The notes below the pieces were generated by a model. It was not told the origin of the DNA, did no database searches, and worked only from the letters and a program-made list of their open reading frames with translations. Below, one piece after another: positions 449 to 20,113 of a DNA stretch of 20,164 nucleotides (position 1 is its first letter; every line of letters begins with the position of its first letter). Position numbers and translations under genes: made by a program. This DNA comes from an uncultured Gammaproteobacteria bacterium (GTDB lineage Bacteria; Patescibacteriota; Patescibacteriia; UBA2591; UBA6264), in the NCBI GenBank assembly GCA_964507075.1, contig CAZDOL010000005.1, positions 23,437 through 43,600 of the forward strand, in the 5' to 3' direction.

Positions 449-889
449 TCATAATTTAAAATTCTTGAGGTTGAATGCTATTGGCAAAAGTTCAGAAATT
501 TTAGCAATTATAATTTTAGTTTTGTCTCTATCGGACATAATAACATCAAAATCAATACCTGATTTCTGAGAAAATTCAGAAAGCATTTGCCGACAAGCTC
601 CGCAAGGAGTAATTACTTCCTCTAAAGAACTAATAATAGCCATAGCTTTAAAATTATTCTCTCCCAAAATATTTGCTTGCGCTAACGCTGATTGTTCTGC
701 GCAGGTCGATAAACGAAAAGAAGCATTTTCAATATTAGCCCCTTGAATTACTTTATTGCTATCTGTTAAAATGGCCGCGCCCACTGCTATGTTTGAATAA
801 GGATTATGGGCTCTATGGCTCGCCTCTTCTGCAGATTGTACTAAGTCCTTGTATTCTTCTTTCAATTCTTTAAAATTAATATTTTCCAT
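449..889 (-). CDS. cdd: Cytidine deaminase
   Basis: 146 aa. The zinc-ligand motifs CAEQSA (C-A-E) and PCGACRQ are present, and the size fits the homotetrameric bacterial Cdd class. The stop codon is TGA. Confidence 0.9.
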   Translation of the reverse strand: MENINFKELKEEYKDLVQSAEEASHRAHNPYSNIAVGAAILTDSNKVIQGANIENASFRLSTCAEQSALAQANILGENNFKAMAIISSLEEVITPCGACRQMLSEFSQKSGIDFDVIMSDRDKTKIIIAKISELLPIAFNLKNFKL

Positions 890-900
890 ATTTTTAATTT

Positions 901-923
901 ATTTGGAGACTTAGTCTCCAAAT
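901..923. repeat. REP-like perfect palindrome ATTTGGAGAC-TTA-GTCTCCAAAT (copy 1 of 4)
   Basis: 10-bp stem with a 3-nt loop. The same core recurs at 19722, 19940 and 20042. It overlaps the last codons and the stop codon of the Doc gene (CCA AAA TTT GGA GAC TAA = PKFGD*). Confidence 0.85.
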
Positions 924-1342
924 TTTGGATAGTTGACCAAATGATTGATTATAAAATTTTCAATTTCAGAGAGAATATGAGCTTTATTTTCAGCTGGACT
1001 TTCAGTAACCCATAAAATAAAATTATAGAACTCATCTTCTTGTACTCTTAACCATTTATAATTCTTGGCCATAAAGAACAAAAGAGTAGCCAAAGCTATC
1101 CTTTTGTTGCCGTCCCTAAAAGCGTGATCCTTAATCATTAAATAAAAAGTGATAGCCAACTTTTTGGGCAAATCCCTATAAAAGGGCTGCCCGCCGAACT
1201 CTTCAAAAGGGACCACCAGAGAACTCTCTAAAATATTAGGGTACCGAGTTCTAAATCCTGGCATTTTTTTATGATACTTCTTTAAAACTTTATTTAGCTG
1301 AGTAAAAAGTATCTCTATTTCGCTAATGAAAATTCTTTTCAT
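911..1342 (-). CDS. doc: Doc (death-on-curing) family Fic-fold toxin
   Basis: 143 aa. It carries the Doc-type Fic motif HAFRDGNKRIA (H-x-F-x-D-G-N-K-R) and lies 5 nt downstream of a small HTH ORF. Confidence 0.8.
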   Translation of the reverse strand: MKRIFISEIEILFTQLNKVLKKYHKKMPGFRTRYPNILESSLVVPFEEFGGQPFYRDLPKKLAITFYLMIKDHAFRDGNKRIALATLLFFMAKNYKWLRVQEDEFYNFILWVTESPAENKAHILSEIENFIINHLVNYPKFGD

Positions 1343-1347
1343 AAAAA

Positions 1348-1614
1348 TTAACTTAAACGCTCAAATAATGAGCCATAATCATCAATCATTTTCTTTACTA
1401 TATGGGATATTTCTTCGGATGACACAAAAGCTCTAGTTAACTTTTCTAAACTTTGTACTGGACAAAATAAATCTTGATCCTTTTTTACGAGCTTAATGTC
1501 CCCCTTTTCGGCCTTATCAATGATTATTTTTTTATCTACTCCTAAATATCTGGACAATTCGTTTAAATTTAAACATCTTTCTTCGAGAGATTTTTTTTTC
1601 TTATTCGCAATCAT
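1348..1614 (-). CDS. Small HTH DNA-binding protein, candidate antitoxin for Doc
   Basis: 88 aa. The segment LNLNELSRYLGVDKKIIIDKAEKGDI resembles an excisionase/MerR-type HTH. It sits immediately upstream of doc, and its ATG overlaps the rarA stop (ATGA at 1611-1614). Confidence 0.5.
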   Translation of the reverse strand: MIANKKKKSLEERCLNLNELSRYLGVDKKIIIDKAEKGDIKLVKKDQDLFCPVQSLEKLTRAFVSSEEISHIVKKMIDDYGSLFERLS

Positions 1615-2973: not shown

Positions 2974-3048
2974 CGCGGGGTAGAGCAACGGCAGCTCGCC
3001 AGGCCCATAACCTGGAGGTTACAGGTTCAAATCCTGTCCCCGCAACCA
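2974..3048 (+). tRNA. Initiator tRNA-fMet (anticodon CAT), with encoded CCA
   Basis: Hand-folded cloverleaf: cgcgggg|ta|gagc|aacggca|gctc|g|ccagg|cccataa|cctgg|aggtt|acagg|ttcaaat|cctgt|ccccgca|a|cca. The C1xA72 mismatch and the A11:U24 pair are bacterial initiator hallmarks. Confidence 0.85.
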
Positions 3049-3049
3049 T

Positions 3050-3121
3050 GGCAGGATAGCTCAATGGTAGAGCGGCGTCTTCATAAGGCGCATGTTGCGG
3101 GTTCAATTCCCGCTCCTGCTA
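3050..3121 (+). tRNA. Second tRNA with anticodon CAT (elongator Met or lysidine-modified Ile2; undecidable by eye), no encoded CCA
   Basis: Cloverleaf: ggcagga|ta|gctc|aatggta|gagc|g|gcgtc|ttcataa|ggcgc|atgtt|gcggg|ttcaatt|cccgc|tcctgct|a. It has a G1.U72 wobble and starts 1 nt after the CCA of the first tRNA. Confidence 0.8.
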
Positions 3122-3129
3122 TTTTATAA

Positions 3130-7314: not shown

Positions 7315-10300
7315 TTATAAAGGAGTTACTTGAATATTGTCCCAGTAGACAACAGCATTCCCGTAATCACCCGTCCAAACGCCCAAACCAATATTGCCTC
7401 TTGTTAATCTTGTCCCTAAATCAGTAATCTCTATTGTTGAATCTTCCAAGTCATCAATGTAAATTTTAATATTCTCTCCTTGAATTATGATTTTCACATG
7501 ATGACTTTCTCCGTCATTAAAAATGTTAGGAAATACTTGAACTTCTTCTAAAATTTCATTCCCACTTTGAGTAGAAATTCTGTATAAACGTAATTTAGGC
7601 ATCCAGGACCATTGACCCATGAAATTAAGTTGATAAAAATTCTCATTATCAGCTCTACGAAACATAACATAACGATCAACTCCATCTATTAAATTAATAT
7701 CAAATTCCATTTGATAATCTTGCCAAGAATAATCACCAATAAAAGTTTCGGAATTAACAGCTTGTTGGCCTACAACAGAAACTCCATATTGTTCATTAAC
7801 TACATTCCAATAATCCTCTTCATTCCATCCATTAGAATTTCCATCATCAAAGTTCTCTGATAATTGTGGTTGTGAAACTGACGGCAAATCTAATGGATCA
7901 GATATTTCTCGCACTTGTAAATTATCAATGGCCATATCCCCTTCTTCACTGTCGCCACTTGAAACAGTAAAACCAATTTTACCGTAAGTAATAGGCAAAG
8001 TATCATCTATATAATCAACTATTTTTTCGCCATCTATATAAACCCTAATATTATTTGATTCCACAACAGCCGTCAAATGATATTCCTGCTCTTGATTAAA
8101 GTAGATTTTGCCGGGGAAAAGGTATTGCGCTAAATTAGTTCCTTGACTTGAAATTATTTTGTCTAAATAAATTCCTGGCGTTGCAGAATCAAATCCCCAA
8201 TAACCGCGCAAATTGATCAAATAATAATTTTCCTGCGATTGATAACGTAAAATCACATAACGGTCAATTCCATCATTAAGGGTTATGTCAACGTCCAATT
8301 GATAATCCTCCCAATCAGGACTCCCAGTGATAGCCCTTGCGTGTAAACTGGTGCCAATCAAATCAACTTGATATTTATTATCAACAATCTGCCATGCATT
8401 TTCGGGACAAGTTCCTGTCGGACAATTATTTGGGCCTGCTATTTTCCAATAATCAGGCAAAGCACCATCAAAATTTTCTTCATAAGGTAATGTAATGAGT
8501 CCTGATAAGGATATTCCTTGAAAAAGTGTTTTAATTTTTATATTATCAATACTCATTTTCCCAGAACCAGCATCTCCCGAATGAGCACTAAAACCAATTT
8601 TGCCTTGGGGAATACGAGCATCCTCAGTTAAATCATATTCCATCATTTTCTCGTTATCTAAATAAATTTGGATGATGTCGTCATTAACTCCAATTGTAAA
8701 TTGATATTCTTGTCCGTTATTAAATGTCGATAACAAAGGATAGGACAAGGACGACAACAAAGTGGACTGACCTTGCTGAATTTCCTCTAAACGTATTTCT
8801 GGATTAGCGCTTTGCCATGTACCTTTTAAAATTAATTGATAATAATTTTCAGCATCTTGATAACCAAATAAAACAGAACGGTCAACGCCATTATCAAAAA
8901 TAATGTCAACATCAATTTGATAATTACGCCAGTTATCCTCGCCTGTCAAAATTTTGGCTGTAAGGTCGGTACCATTTAAATCTACTTGACATTTTTGATC
9001 AACAACCTGCCACGCTAATATTTCTCCTGATTGCGTCCAATTATCATCATTGCCATCACTAAAATCATCTTCAAAAAGCGTTAAATTATTGACTAAACCA
9101 TAAGATGATTGCGGGTTTGGGTTTATTTGCGAGAAAAAATCTTGCAAATTGTTATCTGTATCTTCGCCATTACCATTCGGCCAACCCTGTTTTCTTTCAA
9201 AAGAATAATTTTGCCCTGGAATGGGAGAAAATGATGTTCCTTCTTTAACATATTGCGGATTGCCCCAAGCAAAAACATCAGTATAATTTTGTTGTAAATA
9301 TTCACTTGTCTTTTCGCTCGGATTATATGAATAAAGAACTATTGAACCATTCTCGTTGCTTAAATTAAATTGACATTCATCATAAAGCAACCAATCAATT
9401 ACTGAGCCCAGATAGCCATTTAAACCGATAAGATAATAATCCTTTGAATTAATAGTTGCTTGTTCTGGGAATTTATTTACATAAAGTGGCTCATTCCAAT
9501 CGCTCGCCTTCGTATAATACGCAAAATACCAATTTTCCAAAGAAATATCATCATCTGTTGGATTATATAATTCCACGAACTCATTATCGGCTATTTGTAT
9601 TTCACTCAATAAAACAGTTGGCAAATCAATAGAATATTCAACAGAATCCGACCACTGGCCCTGATTGCCTGCTTTATCTATAGCGCGCGTTTTAAAAGAA
9701 TAAGTTTGCCCATCTTCGCCAGTTAAATTAAAAAATATGTCTGTAGTTGAGGTTGTATTGCCAGACCAACTAATTTCATAATGATCCAACCCTGACAAAT
9801 TATCTTCTACTGCGTCCCATGAAACCCTTAAATCTAATGCTGTGTCACCTTCTTCTATTTGTGGATTTACAACCTGTTCTGGTGCGGTATTATCAAAAAT
9901 AAAATCAGCCGTTGAGGTGCTATTTTGAGCATTTCCAAAAGTGTCAAATGCTTGAGAATAGATAGAATAATAATCGTCAGTCAACAATGAATCACTTAAA
10001 TCAAAATTCCAAGTAGGTGTTGTGCTGGTAGTATTCCCTAATATTGTGCCTAACCAAAGCGAAGAATCACGCCATATTAAATCAGAAGTTGAAGTTGTGT
10101 GCCCTAAATATTGCTGGTTTGAAATTTTTTGAACTTGAATCTTTACCTCTAAAATATCGCTTGTTGTGGTAGCGTTTGAGGATGCGGTTCCTTCAATTCT
10201 ATCTGGCCAAGAAACAGAATTAAAAATATTATTAGCAAGATTAATGTTTGAAATTGGAGCCGTTAAGTCAATGGTCCATTCATAATTTTTCGTCGCTATA

Positions 10301-13300
10301 TTGCCTGCTTGGTCTATCGCCTCTAAATAAAAAATATGACCTCCTTCAGAGAGGTCATTATAGTTTTGCGGAGAAACACAATCTTGTCGCATTTCTTCGT
10401 CTATCCAACAAGAAAAAACAACTATCTCATTTGCCGAAAACTCAAATTGTGCTGATGTTTGATTGGTTAATGAATCAGGAAAAGAATCTAAAGATATTTC
10501 TGGAACGGTTGTATCAATTTCGGGCGCGGTAATAATATTACTCACCCCTTTTGTTAATGTCGTTGTTATTGAAAAATCATTTTTGTCATTGTTGGTATCT
10601 TGTCCATCAATATTGCGAGCACTAGATTGTCCTTTGCTTGGTTCGGGAGCATTGTCGCTTGCGTCTCCATCATCAAAATCTCCATAACTAATTTGATCAA
10701 TAATTGTATCATTGTATTTTAGTTTAATAATATCGCCAGTATTATTTAAGAAAAAGCTGAAATCTTGTCTTTGATTTAAAACTAACCAACTATACGACTC
10801 TAAGGTCAGACCTTCAAGTGATTTTAAAGATTCAGTATTGTCTTCAATCGTCCAATTAGTTAAATCAATTGAATCGCCAGTGTTATTAAAAAGCTCAATC
10901 CATTCTGTCTCTCCTGTTGCAGGGTCTGATACAAATTCATTAATTACTATGTCACTGAGAGAATATTGTGGGAGTTGAGTGTCCCCGCTTTCATCATCAT
11001 CTCCTGCCTCGTCATCTCCCGAACCATTACTAGATTCGTCGTCATCACCTTCCTCTTCTCCATCATTATTTTGTCCCCCTTGTTCGTTGCCACTATCGCT
11101 TACATATATACTATTTGCTTCGCCTGGAGTGCCACCATCAGACAAACTTCCGGTCCATGTCCCGTCAGATTGCTTCTCTATTGTTCTGTTATTATCATTT
11201 CCTCCCCATTCACTTAAATAAGTCAACTCGTCTATTAGATTCCCTATTCCGTCTTTTATGGCAATTGTCTCTGAAGTGTTTTTTAAAGAAAAAGAACTAT
11301 CAAAAAGAGTTCCTGAAAAATTTGTATAATCTACAACAAACGAATTCGCATTGTCAGCAATAATCGCGTAATCGCCAGAAGATAATACTAAATCCCCTTG
11401 TTGTAAATTCAAAGAATGATTCGTTTCCTCTTCATGAAATTTCCAATTAGTCAAATCAACATTTCCATCAGTTGTGTTATATATTTCTATCCACTCATGC
11501 CCAGTATCAACCCCTGACGGATTATACATTATTTCGTTAATTATAACATCTGATAATTGATGCGCTTGATATTGGACACTGGATGATCCGCCCCCTCCTC
11601 CGCCAGAAGAGCCTCCACTGGAGCCACCAGAAATCACAGCCGTAATGACATTGGCCACACCTTTGGTTAAAGTTGTTGTTATTGAAAAATCATTTTTGTC
11701 ATTGTTGGTATCTTGTCCATCAATATTGCGAGCACTAGATTGTCCTTTGCTTGGTTCGGGAGCATTGTCGCTTGCGTCTCCATCATCAAAATCTCCATAA
11801 CTAATTTGATCAATAATTGTATCATTGTATTTTAGTTTAATAATATCGCCAGTATTATTTAAGAAAAAGCTGAAATCTTGTCTTTGATTTAAAACTAACC
11901 AACTATACGACTCTAAGGTCAGACCTTCAAGTGATTTTAAAGATTCAGTATTGTCTTCAATCGTCCAATTAGTTAAATCAATTGAATCGCCAGTGTTATT
12001 AAAAAGCTCAATCCATTCTGTCTCTCCCGTTGATGGATCTGACACGAATTCATTGATTACAATATCACTGACAAGATATTGATGAGGTGAAACCTCATCA
12101 TCGTCTTTTTCGTCCTCAACTTCTTCTAATTCTTCTGGAACAGTATCTTCTTCTAACTCTTCCTCTGGCTCTGTATCCAAAACAAATTCTTCATATTTTT
12201 CTTTTATTTCATCTGTGTCTGAAAAATCCTCACCTCCCACAAAATCTATTAAAAATGGATCCTCTTCTTCATCTGTATATTGAATAAAATCACCTTCTAA
12301 AACAGGAGTGTCGCTGATGTCTGTGTCTGATAATAATTCTTCTATTTTTGCGTCTGCCTTGGGCCCACTTAACAAGCCTTTATTGACCAAATCAGCAATT
12401 TCGTCTGATTCTTTGGCTCCAAATTCTACAAATTGTTGCGTTTTCCGCCAAAAACCTAAGGCAGCATCAAGGTTATCAACTGGATTATCATTTTTTAAAA
12501 AATCTAAATTAATTTTAATTTGGTCAGCGTCAGATAAATCTGCCAATTCTTTGCCAATCGTTAGCCAAGATTTTATAGAACCAAAAAAATTAGCTATCTT
12601 TGATGGTAAGCCAAATTTTTTAGAGATAAGAGTTTTGGCACACAATTTTCCGGTTTCATCAACTATTCTTTTACTAAAAGCCATGATCAAGTTAATCTGA
12701 CGACGTTGTTCTGAGAGTCCATCAACTAATTGAGATTTACCAATAGAAGCAATCTCAATATCTACAGGAACGTCTTTTAGGCTAGACTGTTTAAATTGCG
12801 TGGCGGGAAAGAAAAAATATCTTTCCCCCTCATAATTATAGCCCAAAATATTTATCGTCAATATCTTGCTGATATCTATTTCTGCCTTCATCATCGCTAT
12901 AATCTCTTTGAATTCTTTAAATGCAAATTTCTCCCAAAAATCACCTTGACCCAATTTATGAATTTTCGAAAATTCTTGAGATAACGAGAAACAATCACCA
13001 GATTCATTAATCTCACTTTGATTATCAAAACCGTCTGGAGTGATATTAATGGCATAATAACTATAATTCATTAGGGGATCTGGATGATAAGTTAAATGCG
13101 GAGCATTAGCGCTTTCGTAAATCTTTTCCACGAAACCAACAGATGTCCATTCCCCGCTTTGGGGACCTTTTTGATCACCATAAGTGTAATCAAAAAGTTC
13201 ATGATCCTGAGCAACAATTTTCCTCATTATCGACTTAGCTATTTTATGATTATATTCAAAATCCTGGGGAATTTTAGCCCCAACAAATTCTTCTCCTTTA

Positions 13301-13593
13301 TCTATGTCAACAAAGTATTTCGCGGGAATAATACGCACCTCACCATAATCCACTTCAACGACTAACGGAACGCCTGTTTTCTGTGCTTTGCCAACATAAA
13401 TGCCAACCGCGCCTGGATAAACTTGACCAGAAATAAACGAGCTTTCAAAATTATTGTAGCCATACATTTTGCCATCTTCGGAAGTGTGATAAATAACTGA
13501 ACCCCATGGCAAAGCAAAAGCATTGGTAGTAATGCCAATGCCAAGAAAAAATATTAAACCAAAAAGAATACTTTTTTTGTGAACAATATTCAT
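7315..13593 (-). CDS. Giant secreted multidomain protein: signal peptide, N-terminal globular domain, 4 lamin-tail (LTD) domains, Ig/FN3-like modules, 3 C-terminal ConA-like (DUF1080/LamG-like) modules
   Basis: 2092 aa. The signal peptide is MNIVHKKSILFGLIFFLGIGITTNAFA. LTD signatures are VINEFVSDPxTGETEWIELFNNTGDSIDLTNW (twice), IINEIMYNPSGVDTGHEWIEIYNTT and LLSEIQIADNEFVELYNPT. An FN3-like segment reads LRVSWDAVEDNLSGLDHYEISW...YSFKTRAIDKAGN. Three roughly 190-aa repeats each end in GKIGF..H/S.GD....IDNI/LxV. Acidic and Gly/Ser linkers separate the domains. Confidence 0.85.
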   Translation of the reverse strand: MNIVHKKSILFGLIFFLGIGITTNAFALPWGSVIYHTSEDGKMYGYNNFESSFISGQVYPGAVGIYVGKAQKTGVPLVVEVDYGEVRIIPAKYFVDIDKGEEFVGAKIPQDFEYNHKIAKSIMRKIVAQDHELFDYTYGDQKGPQSGEWTSVGFVEKIYESANAPHLTYHPDPLMNYSYYAINITPDGFDNQSEINESGDCFSLSQEFSKIHKLGQGDFWEKFAFKEFKEIIAMMKAEIDISKILTINILGYNYEGERYFFFPATQFKQSSLKDVPVDIEIASIGKSQLVDGLSEQRRQINLIMAFSKRIVDETGKLCAKTLISKKFGLPSKIANFFGSIKSWLTIGKELADLSDADQIKINLDFLKNDNPVDNLDAALGFWRKTQQFVEFGAKESDEIADLVNKGLLSGPKADAKIEELLSDTDISDTPVLEGDFIQYTDEEEDPFLIDFVGGEDFSDTDEIKEKYEEFVLDTEPEEELEEDTVPEELEEVEDEKDDDEVSPHQYLVSDIVINEFVSDPSTGETEWIELFNNTGDSIDLTNWTIEDNTESLKSLEGLTLESYSWLVLNQRQDFSFFLNNTGDIIKLKYNDTIIDQISYGDFDDGDASDNAPEPSKGQSSARNIDGQDTNNDKNDFSITTTLTKGVANVITAVISGGSSGGSSGGGGGGSSSVQYQAHQLSDVIINEIMYNPSGVDTGHEWIEIYNTTDGNVDLTNWKFHEEETNHSLNLQQGDLVLSSGDYAIIADNANSFVVDYTNFSGTLFDSSFSLKNTSETIAIKDGIGNLIDELTYLSEWGGNDNNRTIEKQSDGTWTGSLSDGGTPGEANSIYVSDSGNEQGGQNNDGEEEGDDDESSNGSGDDEAGDDDESGDTQLPQYSLSDIVINEFVSDPATGETEWIELFNNTGDSIDLTNWTIEDNTESLKSLEGLTLESYSWLVLNQRQDFSFFLNNTGDIIKLKYNDTIIDQISYGDFDDGDASDNAPEPSKGQSSARNIDGQDTNNDKNDFSITTTLTKGVSNIITAPEIDTTVPEISLDSFPDSLTNQTSAQFEFSANEIVVFSCWIDEEMRQDCVSPQNYNDLSEGGHIFYLEAIDQAGNIATKNYEWTIDLTAPISNINLANNIFNSVSWPDRIEGTASSNATTTSDILEVKIQVQKISNQQYLGHTTSTSDLIWRDSSLWLGTILGNTTSTTPTWNFDLSDSLLTDDYYSIYSQAFDTFGNAQNSTSTADFIFDNTAPEQVVNPQIEEGDTALDLRVSWDAVEDNLSGLDHYEISWSGNTTSTTDIFFNLTGEDGQTYSFKTRAIDKAGNQGQWSDSVEYSIDLPTVLLSEIQIADNEFVELYNPTDDDISLENWYFAYYTKASDWNEPLYVNKFPEQATINSKDYYLIGLNGYLGSVIDWLLYDECQFNLSNENGSIVLYSYNPSEKTSEYLQQNYTDVFAWGNPQYVKEGTSFSPIPGQNYSFERKQGWPNGNGEDTDNNLQDFFSQINPNPQSSYGLVNNLTLFEDDFSDGNDDNWTQSGEILAWQVVDQKCQVDLNGTDLTAKILTGEDNWRNYQIDVDIIFDNGVDRSVLFGYQDAENYYQLILKGTWQSANPEIRLEEIQQGQSTLLSSLSYPLLSTFNNGQEYQFTIGVNDDIIQIYLDNEKMMEYDLTEDARIPQGKIGFSAHSGDAGSGKMSIDNIKIKTLFQGISLSGLITLPYEENFDGALPDYWKIAGPNNCPTGTCPENAWQIVDNKYQVDLIGTSLHARAITGSPDWEDYQLDVDITLNDGIDRYVILRYQSQENYYLINLRGYWGFDSATPGIYLDKIISSQGTNLAQYLFPGKIYFNQEQEYHLTAVVESNNIRVYIDGEKIVDYIDDTLPITYGKIGFTVSSGDSEEGDMAIDNLQVREISDPLDLPSVSQPQLSENFDDGNSNGWNEEDYWNVVNEQYGVSVVGQQAVNSETFIGDYSWQDYQMEFDINLIDGVDRYVMFRRADNENFYQLNFMGQWSWMPKLRLYRISTQSGNEILEEVQVFPNIFNDGESHHVKIIIQGENIKIYIDDLEDSTIEITDLGTRLTRGNIGLGVWTGDYGNAVVYWDNIQVTPL
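10541..10975. repeat. Intragenic direct repeat, copy A (encodes LTD 3)
   Basis: 10562..10914 is base-for-base identical to 11675..12027 (353 bp by my manual comparison), an offset of 1113 bp or 371 codons. The flanks are diverged but alignable. Confidence 0.85.
11654..12088. repeat. Intragenic direct repeat, copy B (encodes LTD 1)
   Basis: Partner of 10541..10975. The perfect core is 11675..12027. Confidence 0.85.
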
Positions 13594-14834: not shown

Positions 14835-14863
14835 AAACACAAAAAACCAACCCGTCGGGTTGG
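14835..14863 (-). terminator. Intrinsic terminator of ybaB
   Basis: On the minus strand: CCAACCC-gac-GGGTTGG followed by TTTTTTGTGTTTT. Confidence 0.7.
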
Positions 14864-14894
14864 TTATGAAATTTTACCTTTTCTGTTTAAAAAA

Positions 14895-15140: not shown

Positions 15141-15160
15141 AAATTTAAATTATGGATTAA

Positions 15161-15245
15161 AAATAAAAAATGGTGCTCATTTGGCATCTAAAGGGCGAAC
15201 CCTTTGTCAGCTACAAGAACCGAAGTTCTAAAACAAGCACCACTA
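15161..15245 (-). ncRNA. Candidate structured small RNA, unit 1 (three-way junction, two UUCG tetraloops, terminator-like closing helix plus U-tract)
   Basis: Minus-strand RNA: UGGUGCUUGUUU-U-AGAAC(UUCG)GUUCU-UGUAGCUGAC-AAAGGG(UUCG)CCCUUU-AGAUGCC-AAAUGAGCACCA-UUUUUUAUUUUU. The 12-bp P1 has two G.U pairs that would be C.A mismatches on the plus strand. Four compensatory pair changes occur against unit 2 (18711-18794). Confidence 0.6.
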
Positions 15246-15247
15246 AT

Positions 15248-15292
15248 AGAATAACAGAAACGATTTTTTTAGCAATACCTATCTGTGGATAA
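15248..15292 (-). promoter_or_regulatory. Promoter of sRNA unit 1 with an upstream DnaA-box consensus
   Basis: On the minus strand: TTATCCACA (15292-15284), 8 nt, TTGCTA (15275-15270), 16 nt, TATTCT (15253-15248), then 5 nt to the P1 helix. The same layout occurs in units 2 and 3 while the spacer sequences differ. Confidence 0.55.
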
Positions 15293-18618: not shown

Positions 18619-18674
18619 AACTATATTATACTATATCATCTTATCTTTATTCGGCAAGCCAAATGGGGATAGCA

Positions 18675-18707
18675 GAAAACCAACCAGACGAGTTGGTTTT
18701 CTTTTTT
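18675..18707 (+). terminator. Terminator-like hairpin whose U-tract is on the plus strand
   Basis: GAAAACCAAC-cagacga-GTTGGTTTTC followed by TTTTTT on the plus strand. The minus-strand reading has only a weak U-tract. The stem is related to the ybaB terminator stem (aaccaacc/ggttggtt). Confidence 0.4.
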
Positions 18708-18710
18708 AAT

Positions 18711-18794
18711 AAAAAAAAATGGTACTTATATAGCATCTGAAAGGCGAACCTTTCGTCAGCCGAAAGAACCGAAGTTCTAATATAAGTACCATTA
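18711..18794 (-). ncRNA. Candidate structured small RNA, unit 2
   Basis: Minus-strand RNA: UGGUACUUAUAU-U-AGAAC(UUCG)GUUCU-UUCGGCUGAC-GAAAGG(UUCG)CCUUUC-AGAUGC-UAUAUAAGUACCA-UUUUUUUUU. The junction strings GCUGAC and AGAUGC are conserved with unit 1. Confidence 0.6.
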
Positions 18795-18796
18795 AT

Positions 18797-18842
18797 AGAA
18801 TAACATAAATAATTTTTTTAGCAACACCCAACATGTGGATAA
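18797..18842 (-). promoter_or_regulatory. Promoter of sRNA unit 2 with an upstream DnaA-box consensus
   Basis: On the minus strand: TTATCCACA (18842-18834), 9 nt, TTGCTA (18824-18819), 16 nt, TATTCT (18802-18797), then ATTAA and the P1 helix. Confidence 0.55.
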
Positions 18843-19069: not shown

Positions 19070-19101
19070 AAAAAAGGGGGACCCCATGGGTCCCCCTTTT
19101 T
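19070..19101. terminator. Bidirectional intrinsic terminator
   Basis: AAAAAA-GGGGGACCC-cat-GGGTCCCCC-TTTTT. It has a 9-bp GC stem with A and T tracts on either side. Confidence 0.7.
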
Positions 19102-19116
19102 ACTAATAACCAAAAC

Positions 19117-19131
19117 AGTGGCTGAGCCACT
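19117..19131. repeat. Second palindrome family, copy 1 (AGTGGCT-G-AGCCACT)
   Basis: aaacAgtggctGagccactAAgaa (19113-) is related to aaacGgtggctAagccactGGgaa (20095-). Both have the same orientation and flank the RAYT gene. Confidence 0.6.
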
Positions 19132-19256: not shown

Positions 19257-19919
19257 TCAATCTTCTAGTAAAAACTTTTTGATTTGTTTATTTTCCCTAA
19301 TTCTTTCTAAAGAATCTTCTGCAAACTCTTTGTAATCTAAGGGGCTACCAAATTGATCTGATATAATATCCTTTTTACAAAAACCTTTTTCTTCCTTGTT
19401 GTTATTAATATATTCATTCCAACTTGATTTAAAAAGTTTGGACACTCGGTGTCCAAACTTTTCTAAATTATGAACCTTATAATTTAAATTAACATAAGCA
19501 CTTAAGTGTAATAAATATTCATTAGAGCCTATGTGAATCGCTTTAAAAGGACCCTGAAACAATGAACCGTTTCGCTTATATTCTTTATTAAAAAACATTG
19601 TATAACCTAGACTAACTTTATGCATAAACTTCCTGATCCCTTCTTCAACTAACTGCTTTAAAATAAAATGATAATGATTTGGGTTAAGACAATAACAAAC
19701 AAATTCAACTAACTTTTCTTTTTTGGAGACTAAGTCTCCAAATTTGTTTCTACGAAAAATCTCTTCATAAATACTACCAATTGGGTCCAAAACATTAAAT
19801 TCTTTCATGCTAAGAAAGAATCTGTCTATATCTTCTTGACGCTCAAAAATTGTACGCTTATCTACTCCACGATTATAAATATGATAATATTCCCCGTTAA
19901 TAAATTTTACTTTTCTCAT
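19257..19919 (-). CDS. HUH/Y1 transposase of the IS200-like / REP-associated tyrosine transposase (RAYT) type
   Basis: 220 aa. It has the HUH motif in YCLNPNHYHFIL, GSLFQGPFKAIHI, the tyrosine region LSAYVNLNY, and a trailing SSW. This pattern matches PF01797-type RAYT proteins as I remember them. Confidence 0.75.
   Translation of the reverse strand: MRKVKFINGEYYHIYNRGVDKRTIFERQEDIDRFFLSMKEFNVLDPIGSIYEEIFRRNKFGDLVSKKEKLVEFVCYCLNPNHYHFILKQLVEEGIRKFMHKVSLGYTMFFNKEYKRNGSLFQGPFKAIHIGSNEYLLHLSAYVNLNYKVHNLEKFGHRVSKLFKSSWNEYINNNKEEKGFCKKDIISDQFGSPLDYKEFAEDSLERIRENKQIKKFLLED
19722..19742. repeat. REP-like palindrome copy 2, inverted loop (TAA), inside the RAYT coding sequence
   Basis: TTTGGAGAC-TAA-GTCTCCAAA. 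On the minus strand it is read in frame as K FGDLVSK K. Confidence 0.85.
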
Positions 19920-19939
19920 ATATCTTTTTTCTGAGATCT

Positions 19940-19960
19940 TTTGGAGACTTAGTCTCCAAA
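19940..19960. repeat. REP-like palindrome copy 3
   Basis: TTTGGAGAC-TTA-GTCTCCAAA, 20 nt upstream of the RAYT ATG. Confidence 0.85.
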
Positions 19961-20025
19961 TCTATTTTAGCAGAAGCATAGAAATAACACAATGACAAAT
20001 AACAAAACTGCAAAACCAAACCAAA

Positions 20026-20064
20026 AACTTTTGGAGACAACTTTTGGAGACTTAGTCTCCAAAA
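20026..20064. repeat. REP-like palindrome copy 4, preceded by a 13-bp tandem duplication of its left arm
   Basis: AACTTTTGGAGAC (20026-20038) is repeated at 20039-20051. The full palindrome TTTTGGAGAC-TTA-GTCTCCAAAA spans 20042-20064. Confidence 0.85.
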
Positions 20065-20098: not shown

Positions 20099-20113
20099 GG
20101 TGGCTAAGCCACT
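20099..20113. repeat. Second palindrome family, copy 2 (GGTGGCT-A-AGCCACT)
   Basis: See 19117..19131. Confidence 0.6.

Follow-up and report, generated by a model that had tools for sequence, protein, structure and literature searches.

A probable REPtron-like unit in Patescibacteria: a Y1 HUH gene with short palindromes within and around it

Transposases of the RAYT kind (REP-associated tyrosine transposases), together with the repetitive extragenic palindromes (REPs) that accompany them, are the best-known domesticated transposases living with a repeat family of their own. The present analysis deals with a related arrangement in a stretch of 20,164 nucleotides (nt) of contig CAZDOL010000005.1, referred to throughout as the window, which holds a gene for a 220-amino-acid (220-aa) protein of the Y1 HUH type and copies of a short palindrome lying inside this gene, upstream of it and far away from it. 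The RAYT/TnpA_REP REPtron of E. coli is reportedly the subject of the studies of Nunvar (2010), Ton-Hoang (2012), Messing (2012) and Corneloup (2021).

TnpA_REP enzymes bind and cleave their cognate REP hairpins as single-stranded DNA (PMC8266576; 4ER8), and the known members are strand-specific, using either a GT[AG]G foot or irregularities of the stem (PMC8266576). Dispersed REP families of RAYT/TnpA_REP systems (class 2) are of high copy number, usually exceeding 100 copies per genome. The TnpA_Y1 proteins were classified by Quentin, Siguier, Chandler and Fichant in 2018, and REPs are described there in frame inside the tnpAREP genes of TnpA_REP subclass 2.4 (Bertels group 4) (PMC6006769). 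The in-frame hosts named in the available text of PMC3733652 for Rickettsia palindromic elements (RPEs) and intragenic REPs include tRNA synthetases and replication proteins. Against this background, the Y1 HUH gene of the window and its palindromes probably make up a REPtron-like unit. The gene is one of a large clade of TnpA_REP/RAYT-like genes spread across Patescibacteria, for which a short, perfect, lineage-specific palindrome would be the cognate element, placed at up to four fixed sites.

The Y1 HUH protein and the palindromes on its gene

The gene lies at 19257..19919 on the minus strand and is supported by its open reading frame (ORF), a Pfam match, an AlphaFold2 model and homologs. 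The protein matches PF01797 (Y1_Tnp) over residues 67-144, its score of 28.2 bits exceeding the gathering cutoff of 23; its HUH motif H82-Y83-H84 is encoded at 19668-19676 and its presumed catalytic Tyr142, in the motif YVNLN, at 19494-19496, both within this minus-strand ORF. In an alignment of 30 homologs H82, H84 and Y142 are invariant, and the tyrosine motif is followed by a variable residue, its Y and N being conserved and the P of Y---NP absent; the motifs of the clade read NHYH / FQ / YVNLN / SSW. The AlphaFold2 model, made with 30 homologs (mean pLDDT 76.6, pTM 0.77), places Y142 at the end of a helix spanning residues 133-144, and its best Foldseek match in the PDB is 4er8_A (E 1.2e-4, TM 0.46/0.59), followed by the TnpA proteins of IS608 and ISDra2. 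A family-profile sequence search of the PDB gave nothing at E<=0.01, the link to 4ER8 coming from the fold search only, and the NCBIfam RAYT equivalog NF047646 was not reached (16.3 bits against a cutoff of 80). Because the Pfam and fold matches pass while the NF047646 and PDB profile searches fail, the protein appears, as judged by sequence and model, to be a divergent RAYT-kind member of the Y1 HUH superfamily and not a canonical proteobacterial RAYT. An earlier note on this DNA had proposed a RAYT-type HUH transposase in a setting resembling the candidate phyla radiation (CPR), and both proposals hold: the top structure is that of the E. coli RAYT with a REP hairpin, and the homologs, which number more than 5000, carry source names that, where given, are Patescibacteria, Parcubacteria or Niyogibacteria. 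When clustered at 50% identity, the members of the clade below E 1e-30 fall into 830 clusters.

The palindrome TTTGGAGAC-TTA-GTCTCCAAA, of which four copies had been noted, is present at every site then given, exact TTTGGAGACNNNGTCTCCAAA occurring at 902-922, 19940-19960 and 20043-20063 (loop TTA on the plus strand) and at 19722-19742 (loop TAA). Chance or a codon artefact could be ruled out as the origin of the palindromes, since dinucleotide-preserving shuffles of the window gave 0 matches to TTTGGAGAC-NNN-GTCTCCAAA and pairing at 9 or more of 10 positions is very rare in control windows. The copy inside the gene (site 1, 19722..19742, minus strand) reads TTTGGAGAC-TTA-GTCTCCAAA on the coding strand, and its loop is exactly one codon; the codons TTT GGA GAC TTA GTC TCC AAA encode F60-G-D-L-V-S-K66 in the frame of the Y1 gene, 15 residues N-terminal of H82-Y83-H84, in agreement with the peptide FGDLVSK that the note had placed upstream of the HUH motif. 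The opposite loop orientation of this copy, which the note had also pointed out, is real and has a trivial cause, because the other orientation would place a TAA stop in frame. The count of four was nevertheless incomplete, as a search with two mismatches allowed recovered an overlooked fifth copy at 19437-19457, TTTGGACAC-TCG-GTGTCCAAA, in which both differences are compensatory and the palindrome is kept. This variant core is the centre of a second in-frame palindrome (site 2, 19432..19462, minus strand), which reads AAAAGTTTGGACAC-CGA-GTGTCCAAACTTTT on the coding strand with a perfect 14-bp stem, and it encodes F155-G-H-R-V-S-K161 in the same frame as site 1, again with a loop of one codon.

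Upstream of the gene, a proximal copy at 19940..19960 starts 20 nt from the ATG, with its loop centre 31 nt before the ATG and the coding-strand loop TAA, and a distal copy occupies 20026..20064, its palindrome at 20042-20064 having a 10-bp stem and starting 123 nt from the ATG (20 nt and about 120 nt had been stated before); the two have the same loop orientation and are 103 nt apart. The distal copy includes a 13-bp tandem duplication of one arm (AACTTTTGGAGAC twice, at 20026-20038 and 20039-20051), which had also been described and is real; it is missing from L089, a homologous locus whose protein is 95% identical and which is the closest relative of the window, and thus represents an indel polymorphism. 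Such spare arms stand beside 8-10 of 205 family palindromes, against about 0.4 expected by chance according to our own estimate, and the extra half-arms are always arranged as L-L-loop-R or L-loop-R-R and always lie outside genes. The remaining copy, at 901..923 with a 10-bp stem, is dispersed, lying 19 kb from the Y1 gene and overlapping the 3' end of a Fic/Doc ORF (911-1342, minus strand), of which its 902-922 core encodes the final F-G-D and the TAA stop (...NYPKFGD*); on its other side, 12 nt separate it from the ATG of a downstream cytidine deaminase gene (449-889, minus strand). Directly upstream of the Fic/Doc gene there is a small ORF (1348-1614, minus strand) without a Pfam match, which could be the antitoxin partner of that gene. 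Folded as single-stranded DNA, the window hairpins reach -7.9 to -13.8 kcal/mol (z -4.8 to -8.0), the most stable being that of site 2 (-13.8 kcal/mol, z -8.0).

The generality of this layout was examined in a DNA set of 80 homologous metagenome loci (49-71% protein identity) which, together with the window, make 81 loci, palindromes being counted when they had a perfect stem of at least 8 and a loop of 3. Copies are found upstream in 60/81 loci (modal loop centre 26 nt before the ATG), at site 1 in 48/81 (around codon 55-65), at site 2 in 40/81 (around codon 145-160, with stems up to 19 bp) and downstream in 47/81 (mode 13 nt after the stop), and the upstream and downstream copies match each other in sequence. 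In many homologs one or both intragenic copies are missing. At least 9 of 10 positions form Watson-Crick pairs at 64-81% of the sites, compared with 2.6% of control windows, and in 87 of the 89 copies within ORFs the loop coincides with a single codon. These ORFs contain 1.75 palindromes per kb and the flanks 0.14 per kb, in accordance with the earlier remark that the palindromes cluster on the transposase gene. All four sites share the consensus cACTTGG-N4-N3-N4-CCAAGTg; over 64 distinct cores the arm obeys the rule TT[G/A]G-N-N-R-Y, so that the loop-closing pair is Y:R (63/64 cores), and the family as a whole follows cAC-TT[G/A]G-N-N-R-Y / NNN / R-Y-N-N-C[C/T]AA-GTg. A 5' GT[AG]G foot is absent from this consensus, the foot being cAC...GTg and the core beginning with TT[G/A]G; GTGG...CCAC cores occur in two loci, L045 and L077.

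At the protein level, the alignment of 30 homologs reveals that each homolog repeats its own peptide at both sites and that the peptides vary between proteins, as in KFGHRVSK, KFRSSAPKL, KFSGSATEL and KLRSSASQ, each present twice per protein. Since the analogous peptides of the homologs are encoded by palindromic DNA, they do not represent a conserved peptide that happens to be specified by ordinary codons, which the note had named as an observation that would count against it. The homolog alignment and the homolog DNA also rule out a one-off insertion: the in-frame copy belongs to a pair of conserved in-frame sites within a four-site layout common to most relatives. The observation is real, but it does not reflect an individual insertion, and its central surprise already has a precedent in subclass 2.4 as presented in the available part of Quentin et al. 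2018.

The two sites fall in regions of low model confidence, with pLDDT below 50 at residues 47-65 (the site 1 stretch) and an average of 58 in the 151-160 block (site 2). Homologs without hairpins keep all catalytic motifs and have linkers of comparable length, unrelated in sequence and rich in lysine; as the linkers with and without a hairpin differ by only about 2-3 residues, presence or absence of a hairpin is not a simple indel. Far longer site 1 insertions are seen in some homologs (P0181, P0208, P0245 and P0262), in which the profile match is split in two, and in locus L080 (6001-6738) the palindromes of both sites are nested or double, their stems reaching 23-24 bp, several cassettes apparently being stacked at the same positions in these cases.

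Copying between sites and dispersal of the palindrome

Comparison of the 19-nt cores, in either orientation, showed that copies at the same locus are identical in 78-88% of comparisons, as against 0.8% between loci, even though 69 distinct cores exist in total; loop orientation between sites is about 50/50. In each of the loci L015, L025 and L030 the same imperfect copy recurs at different sites, and such shared imperfections point to copying rather than to independent selection for pairing. Coordinated changes are also seen between related loci: in L048 and L051 (93% nucleotide identity of the ORF) the upstream copy and site 2 alike have the loop GCC in the former locus and GGC in the latter, L051 and L087 have the same loop-base difference at both copies, and in L020 versus L021 site 1 and the downstream copy are altered together. 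In line with this, 65 of 119 close homologs have site 1 and site 2 peptides that agree at 6 or more of 7 positions (null 2.3%), as do 12 of 107 representatives of more distant 50%-identity clusters. Thus, the copies within one genome are kept alike by ongoing copying between sites, in either orientation, and the central ~11 nt of the palindrome undergo fast turnover between lineages.

A detailed example is provided by the genes of the window (19257-19919) and of L089 (205-867). The site 2 core is GGAAGC-TCA-GCTTCC in L089 and GGACAC-CGA-GTGTCC in the window, both being perfect palindromes, and 7 of 31 nt differ at this site (22.6%), whereas the 259 nt between the two sites diverge by 1.9% with 208 identical in a row. 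From the ATG to site 1 the divergence is 7.3%, and beyond site 2 it is 4.0%. This mosaic suggests recombination with breakpoints near the hairpins, read from a single sequence pair and thus anecdotal.

Away from the gene the palindrome is sparse. In 510 kb of flanks 16-18 palindromes of the family type were counted, about 1 per 30 kb, so that copies are some 80-fold denser on the gene than elsewhere; the contigs with an identical protein are all at most 6.5 kb long, and the genome-wide abundance is an estimate from these flanks. The core of the distal palindromes is mostly an exact match to that of the local gene, and about 7 of 16 distal copies fall inside long open frames, in which the loop usually forms a codon. 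The exact 21-mer of the window was also found in five other metagenome-assembled genomes, at loci without a Y1 gene, L006 alone ending in a partial match to the RAYT gene, and the genomes of the reference set that carry it have at most 5 copies each. In three of these loci it is read in frame as FGDLVSK, namely in a HolA-like (DNA polymerase III delta-like) protein (L003, 6399-6419), in a Mur ligase (L005, 4670-4690) and, as an adjacent pair, in a leucyl-tRNA synthetase (LeuRS; L007, 5929-5978); the two copies of the LeuRS pair abut with opposite loop orientation, the second being read in another phase to give THLETKSPSG-FGDLVSK. The RAYT kind of the gene, as proposed in the note, stands, but this is not a canonical REP/REPIN system, given the lack of a GT[AG]G foot, the sparse copies, the NF047646 score of 16.3 against 80 and the finding that no repeated REPIN doublet unit is evident in the window.

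The surroundings of the gene are variable, with 175 clusters among 244 neighbouring ORFs and synteny conserved only locally, and no locus has two copies of the gene, the loci spanning at most 12 kb. Contigs from different samples that carry an identical gene (L090-L094) often end 220-500 nt upstream of the ATG, the window itself ending at 245 nt, and these ends may be assembly breaks at a repeat located there.

Promoter setting, proposed mechanism and rival explanations

A match to TATAAT at 5 or more of 6 positions follows 42 of the 57 upstream copies, compared with 9% of controls. It typically starts at +14 from the loop centre, is preceded by a TGn extension in 31 of the 42 and ends, modally, 6 nt before the ATG, a distance at which the mRNA would have little or no leader; the left arm TTGGAx falls in the -35 slot, with a spacer of 17 nt. 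Judged by consensus, the upstream copy looks to be embedded in the core promoter of the gene. Mismatches within the stems (G:T 45, A:C 40, other 126) show no G:U bias, which argues for a constraint at the DNA rather than the RNA level. An Rfam search returned two tRNAs only, the palindromes matching no family, and a U-tract is not consistently present after the downstream copies.

Analogy with the TnpA_REP of E. coli and the TnpA of IS608, both of which bind and cleave their own hairpins in single-stranded form, suggests that the enzyme binds the present hairpins when these are extruded as single-stranded DNA. The palindromes are positioned in the apparent core promoter, in the linker before the HUH motif (variable in sequence, poorly modelled with low pLDDT, and accommodating the palindrome in frame), in frame in the linker after the helix of the catalytic tyrosine and directly past the stop codon. 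Copies within the ORF remain in frame because a 21-nt palindrome whose 3-nt loop is a codon encodes a small polar peptide, of the form (L/F)-G-x-x-x-(S/P/T)-K, in loops of low model confidence. Cleavage and rejoining by the enzyme at or near the hairpins, or gene conversion promoted by them, would spread and homogenise the copies, the enzyme's own gene being the preferred substrate through cis preference, and the promoter-embedded copy would render expression sensitive to hairpin binding or extrusion, all by the same analogy. Conversion between palindromes aligned in either direction is compatible with the random loop orientation, and so is an inversion of the spacer. A stronger version, in which the enzyme itself cuts and rejoins the conserved outer stem, in either orientation, and in this way actively rewrites a set of fixed hairpin cassettes within its gene, is considered unlikely; if it were true, one event would simultaneously alter a promoter operator, a DNA substrate and two surface loops of the enzyme, so that substrate evolution, autoregulation and protein sequence would be coupled, and 7-codon cassettes would occasionally be written into housekeeping genes.

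Several points weigh against the proposal of a REPtron-like unit with a cognate palindrome. The link between enzyme and hairpins, like any regulatory role, is inferred, in the former case from association and analogy, and the homogenisation of copies could be ordinary gene conversion in which the enzyme takes no part. As the sites are inherited, the counts of phase 0 and of fixed positions do not represent independent events. Unlike classical REP families, this one has few copies outside the gene, which weakens the case for genome-wide mobilisation by the enzyme. Perfect palindromes lacking a GT[AG]G foot and showing random loop orientation are a misfit with the strand-specific recognition known so far and, with random orientation and no guide, any recognition or strand discrimination by the enzyme must work differently here. 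In addition, the window is atypical of its clade: its Y1 gene has no downstream palindrome copy, its site 2 core is unlike the other four window copies, and its proximal upstream copy (centre at -31) is not followed by a good -10 box, the best candidate being TGCTAAAAT, between the two upstream copies.

Among the alternatives, two are serious. The palindromes may be tolerated selfish passengers, mobile or prone to conversion, with no function for the gene and refreshed by conversion from neighbouring copies, the two intragenic sites persisting because the linkers tolerate any short polar peptide. The position of both sites in hypervariable linkers of low model confidence, the retention of every catalytic motif in hairpin-less homologs and the in-frame copies in other genes, which recall the RPEs of Rickettsia and the REPs that Di Nocera et al. 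2013 reported inside genes, are consistent with this explanation, and the same view was held for subclass 2.4 in the available part of Quentin et al. 2018 (PMC6006769). It is thus a real possibility, held at less than even confidence, since it offers no account of the recurrence of the same two positions, the promoter and the post-stop site across at least 69 core variants, and leaves unexplained both the ~80-fold density on the gene and the fixed register with the -10 box. The second serious alternative is a set of autoregulatory operators, in which the four palindromes are mainly cis-regulatory, the promoter copy being occluded by the enzyme or by extrusion of a hairpin or cruciform, the intragenic and downstream copies serving as auxiliary operators or roadblocks, like lac O2 inside lacZ, and selection for regulation rather than mobility keeping all four sites matched to the specificity of the protein. 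In most loci the upstream copy does reach from the -35 slot as far as the extended -10 box, in a promoter that probably yields leaderless mRNA, and all four sites are perfect and matched as well as concentrated on the gene. Regulation of the RAYT gene, on the other hand, does not explain why dispersed copies in unrelated housekeeping genes have the same core, and the identical imperfect copies at different sites indicate copying and not site-by-site selection; with one or both intragenic copies missing in many homologs and a promoter layout in the window itself that misfits, the operator explanation is held at slightly lower confidence than that of passengers.

The other two alternatives have less in their favour. 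The flanking hairpins could be the subterminal hairpins at the left and right ends of an autonomous IS200-like element of ~750 bp with the ORF as its transposase, as hairpins stand directly outside both ORF ends in most loci, neighbouring genes vary widely between loci and contigs frequently break upstream of the gene. IS200 itself is close in size to such a unit. This is improbable in view of the motif Y142---N146 in place of the Y---Q of IS200-type transposases, the lack of any locus with two copies within 12 kb, the occurrence of most listed homolog proteins on one or a few contigs each, the identical perfect palindromes in random orientation at the two ends, which are unlike those of IS200/IS605, and the missing downstream hairpin in the window. 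Least probable is an element acting at the RNA level, in which the hairpins would affect stability, translation pausing, termination or processing of the mRNA. Every copy on the gene is transcribed or borders the transcript, two window copies are terminator-like on the plus strand, i.e. against antisense transcription, and REPs elsewhere act as 3' untranslated region elements according to the accessible part of 10.64898/2026.03.23.713779; yet the stem mismatches have no excess of G:U wobbles, orientation relative to transcription is random, the downstream copies lack a consistent U-tract and no Rfam family is matched.

Other repeats of the window and comparison with described systems

The window contains further repeated sequences. 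A second palindromic module, (C)CAGTGGCT-N-AGCCAC(C/T)GTTT..ATT...T then AAAAAG(A/G)(A/G)GGG, forms direct repeats that bracket the transposase unit (19118-19130 and 20100-20112, about 41-50 nt each; about 885-930 in L089). It occurs in this lineage only (L090-L094, with a variant in L089), and is polymorphic for presence and absence, lying upstream of the gene in the window and not in L089, and directly downstream in L089 and not in the window. It always stands 5' of the same A-rich/GGGG motif, and its GTGG...CCAC ends resemble those of 'double-foot' REPs. The possibility that GTGGCT-N-AGCCAC is the true cognate REP was set aside, this being a separate element found in this lineage only. Between the transposase unit and a GNAT acetyltransferase gene, at 19071-19101, there is a palindrome with a perfect 14-bp stem, AAAAAGGGGGACCCCATGGGTCCCCCTTTTT, with A and T runs at its flanks, which from its sequence looks like a bidirectional terminator. 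Elsewhere, two different genes are preceded by the copies of a 123-nt direct repeat of 83% identity (15157-15279 and 18706-18828), another family of palindromes, AACCAAC...GTTGGTT, is represented at 14845-14865 and 18674-18702, a 2092-aa ORF (7315-13593, minus strand) has internal repeats including a 300-nt unit that is 97% identical between 10526-10825 and 11639-11938, and two tRNA-Met (CAT) genes follow each other with zero spacer (2974-3048 and 3049-3122, plus strand).

The probable REPtron-like unit belongs to a very large clade and its layout is unusually compact and regular, with a hairpin in the promoter, in two loops of the protein and at the 3' end of the gene. Such a layout opens self-regulation through the substrate, enzyme-catalysed homogenisation and recognition without a GTAG guide to oligonucleotide and reporter work. 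It also indicates that CPR bacteria with small genomes tolerate 7-codon palindromic cassettes in essential genes (LeuRS, Mur ligase), in parallel to the Rickettsia RPEs, and these in-frame cassettes matter for annotation and for protein-family alignments of CPR bacteria. A literature search that covered part of the journals found no account of CPR RAYTs or of a four-site architecture, and in the available portion of PMC6006769 no description of the four-site placement, the promoter embedding or the concerted turnover was found.

With regard to structure, the best match is the RAYT/TnpA_REP of the E. coli REPtron (PDB 4ER8), which likewise has a gene flanked by its own palindromes, with its own variant for each gene. 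Unlike that system, the present one does not reach the NCBIfam equivalog, has no GTAG guide, bulge or BIME/REPIN arrays and few dispersed copies, and carries palindromes inside the ORF and inside the promoter. IS200 has a hairpin upstream of its start. The IS200/IS605 TnpA proteins share the fold and the hairpins just outside both gene ends, and differ in having Y---Q where Y---N is found here; identical perfect end hairpins in random orientation and the lack of any sign of multiple copies further separate the present unit from them. RPEs are longer than the palindromes of this clade and are not known to occupy set positions within a Y1 gene cognate to them. The in-frame copies described here, unlike RPEs, are 7-codon units that co-vary with the copies on the enzyme gene; the likeness to RPEs (Ogata 2000, via PMC3733652, in its available part) and to the GTAG/CGTC intragenic REPs (Di Nocera 2013) lies in the presence of short in-frame palindromes in housekeeping genes.

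Within the TnpA_Y1 classification, as far as the available portion of PMC6006769 goes, the closest group by motifs alone is subclass 2.1 (Bertels group 1; 'TIRYT'), with which NH[YF]H, FQ, a Y[IV]HLNP-like motif, an SS motif in the proximal tail and a length above 200 aa are shared. That subclass has a C-terminal helix-turn-helix-like domain and no REP-like sequences are reported there as associated with it, whereas here the P of Y---NP is absent and palindromes are abundant on the gene. In arrangement, the likeness is to subclass 2.4 in the same source (PMC6006769), in which a Y1 HUH gene of TnpA_REP type is also flanked by cognate palindromes and bears further copies within the gene, the frame being intact and the copies lying in peripheral loops of the protein. 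The insertions here, however, are located before the HUH strand (60-66) and after the tyrosine helix (155-161), unlike those of subclass 2.4, and the repeats are perfect palindromes of 21-41 nt with a cAC...GTg foot instead of long REPs with a GT[AG]G foot or 'double foot'. The motifs are NHYH/FQ/YVNLN as against NH[IFV]H/WQ/YIxNNP, and the hosts are Patescibacteria as against Cyanobacteria and Bacteroidetes (PMC6006769). In conclusion, measured against subclass 2.4 as described in the available part of that classification, what is new in the present system is its motifs, its hosts, its insertion sites, its type of repeat, the four-site placement including the promoter and the concerted turnover of the copies.

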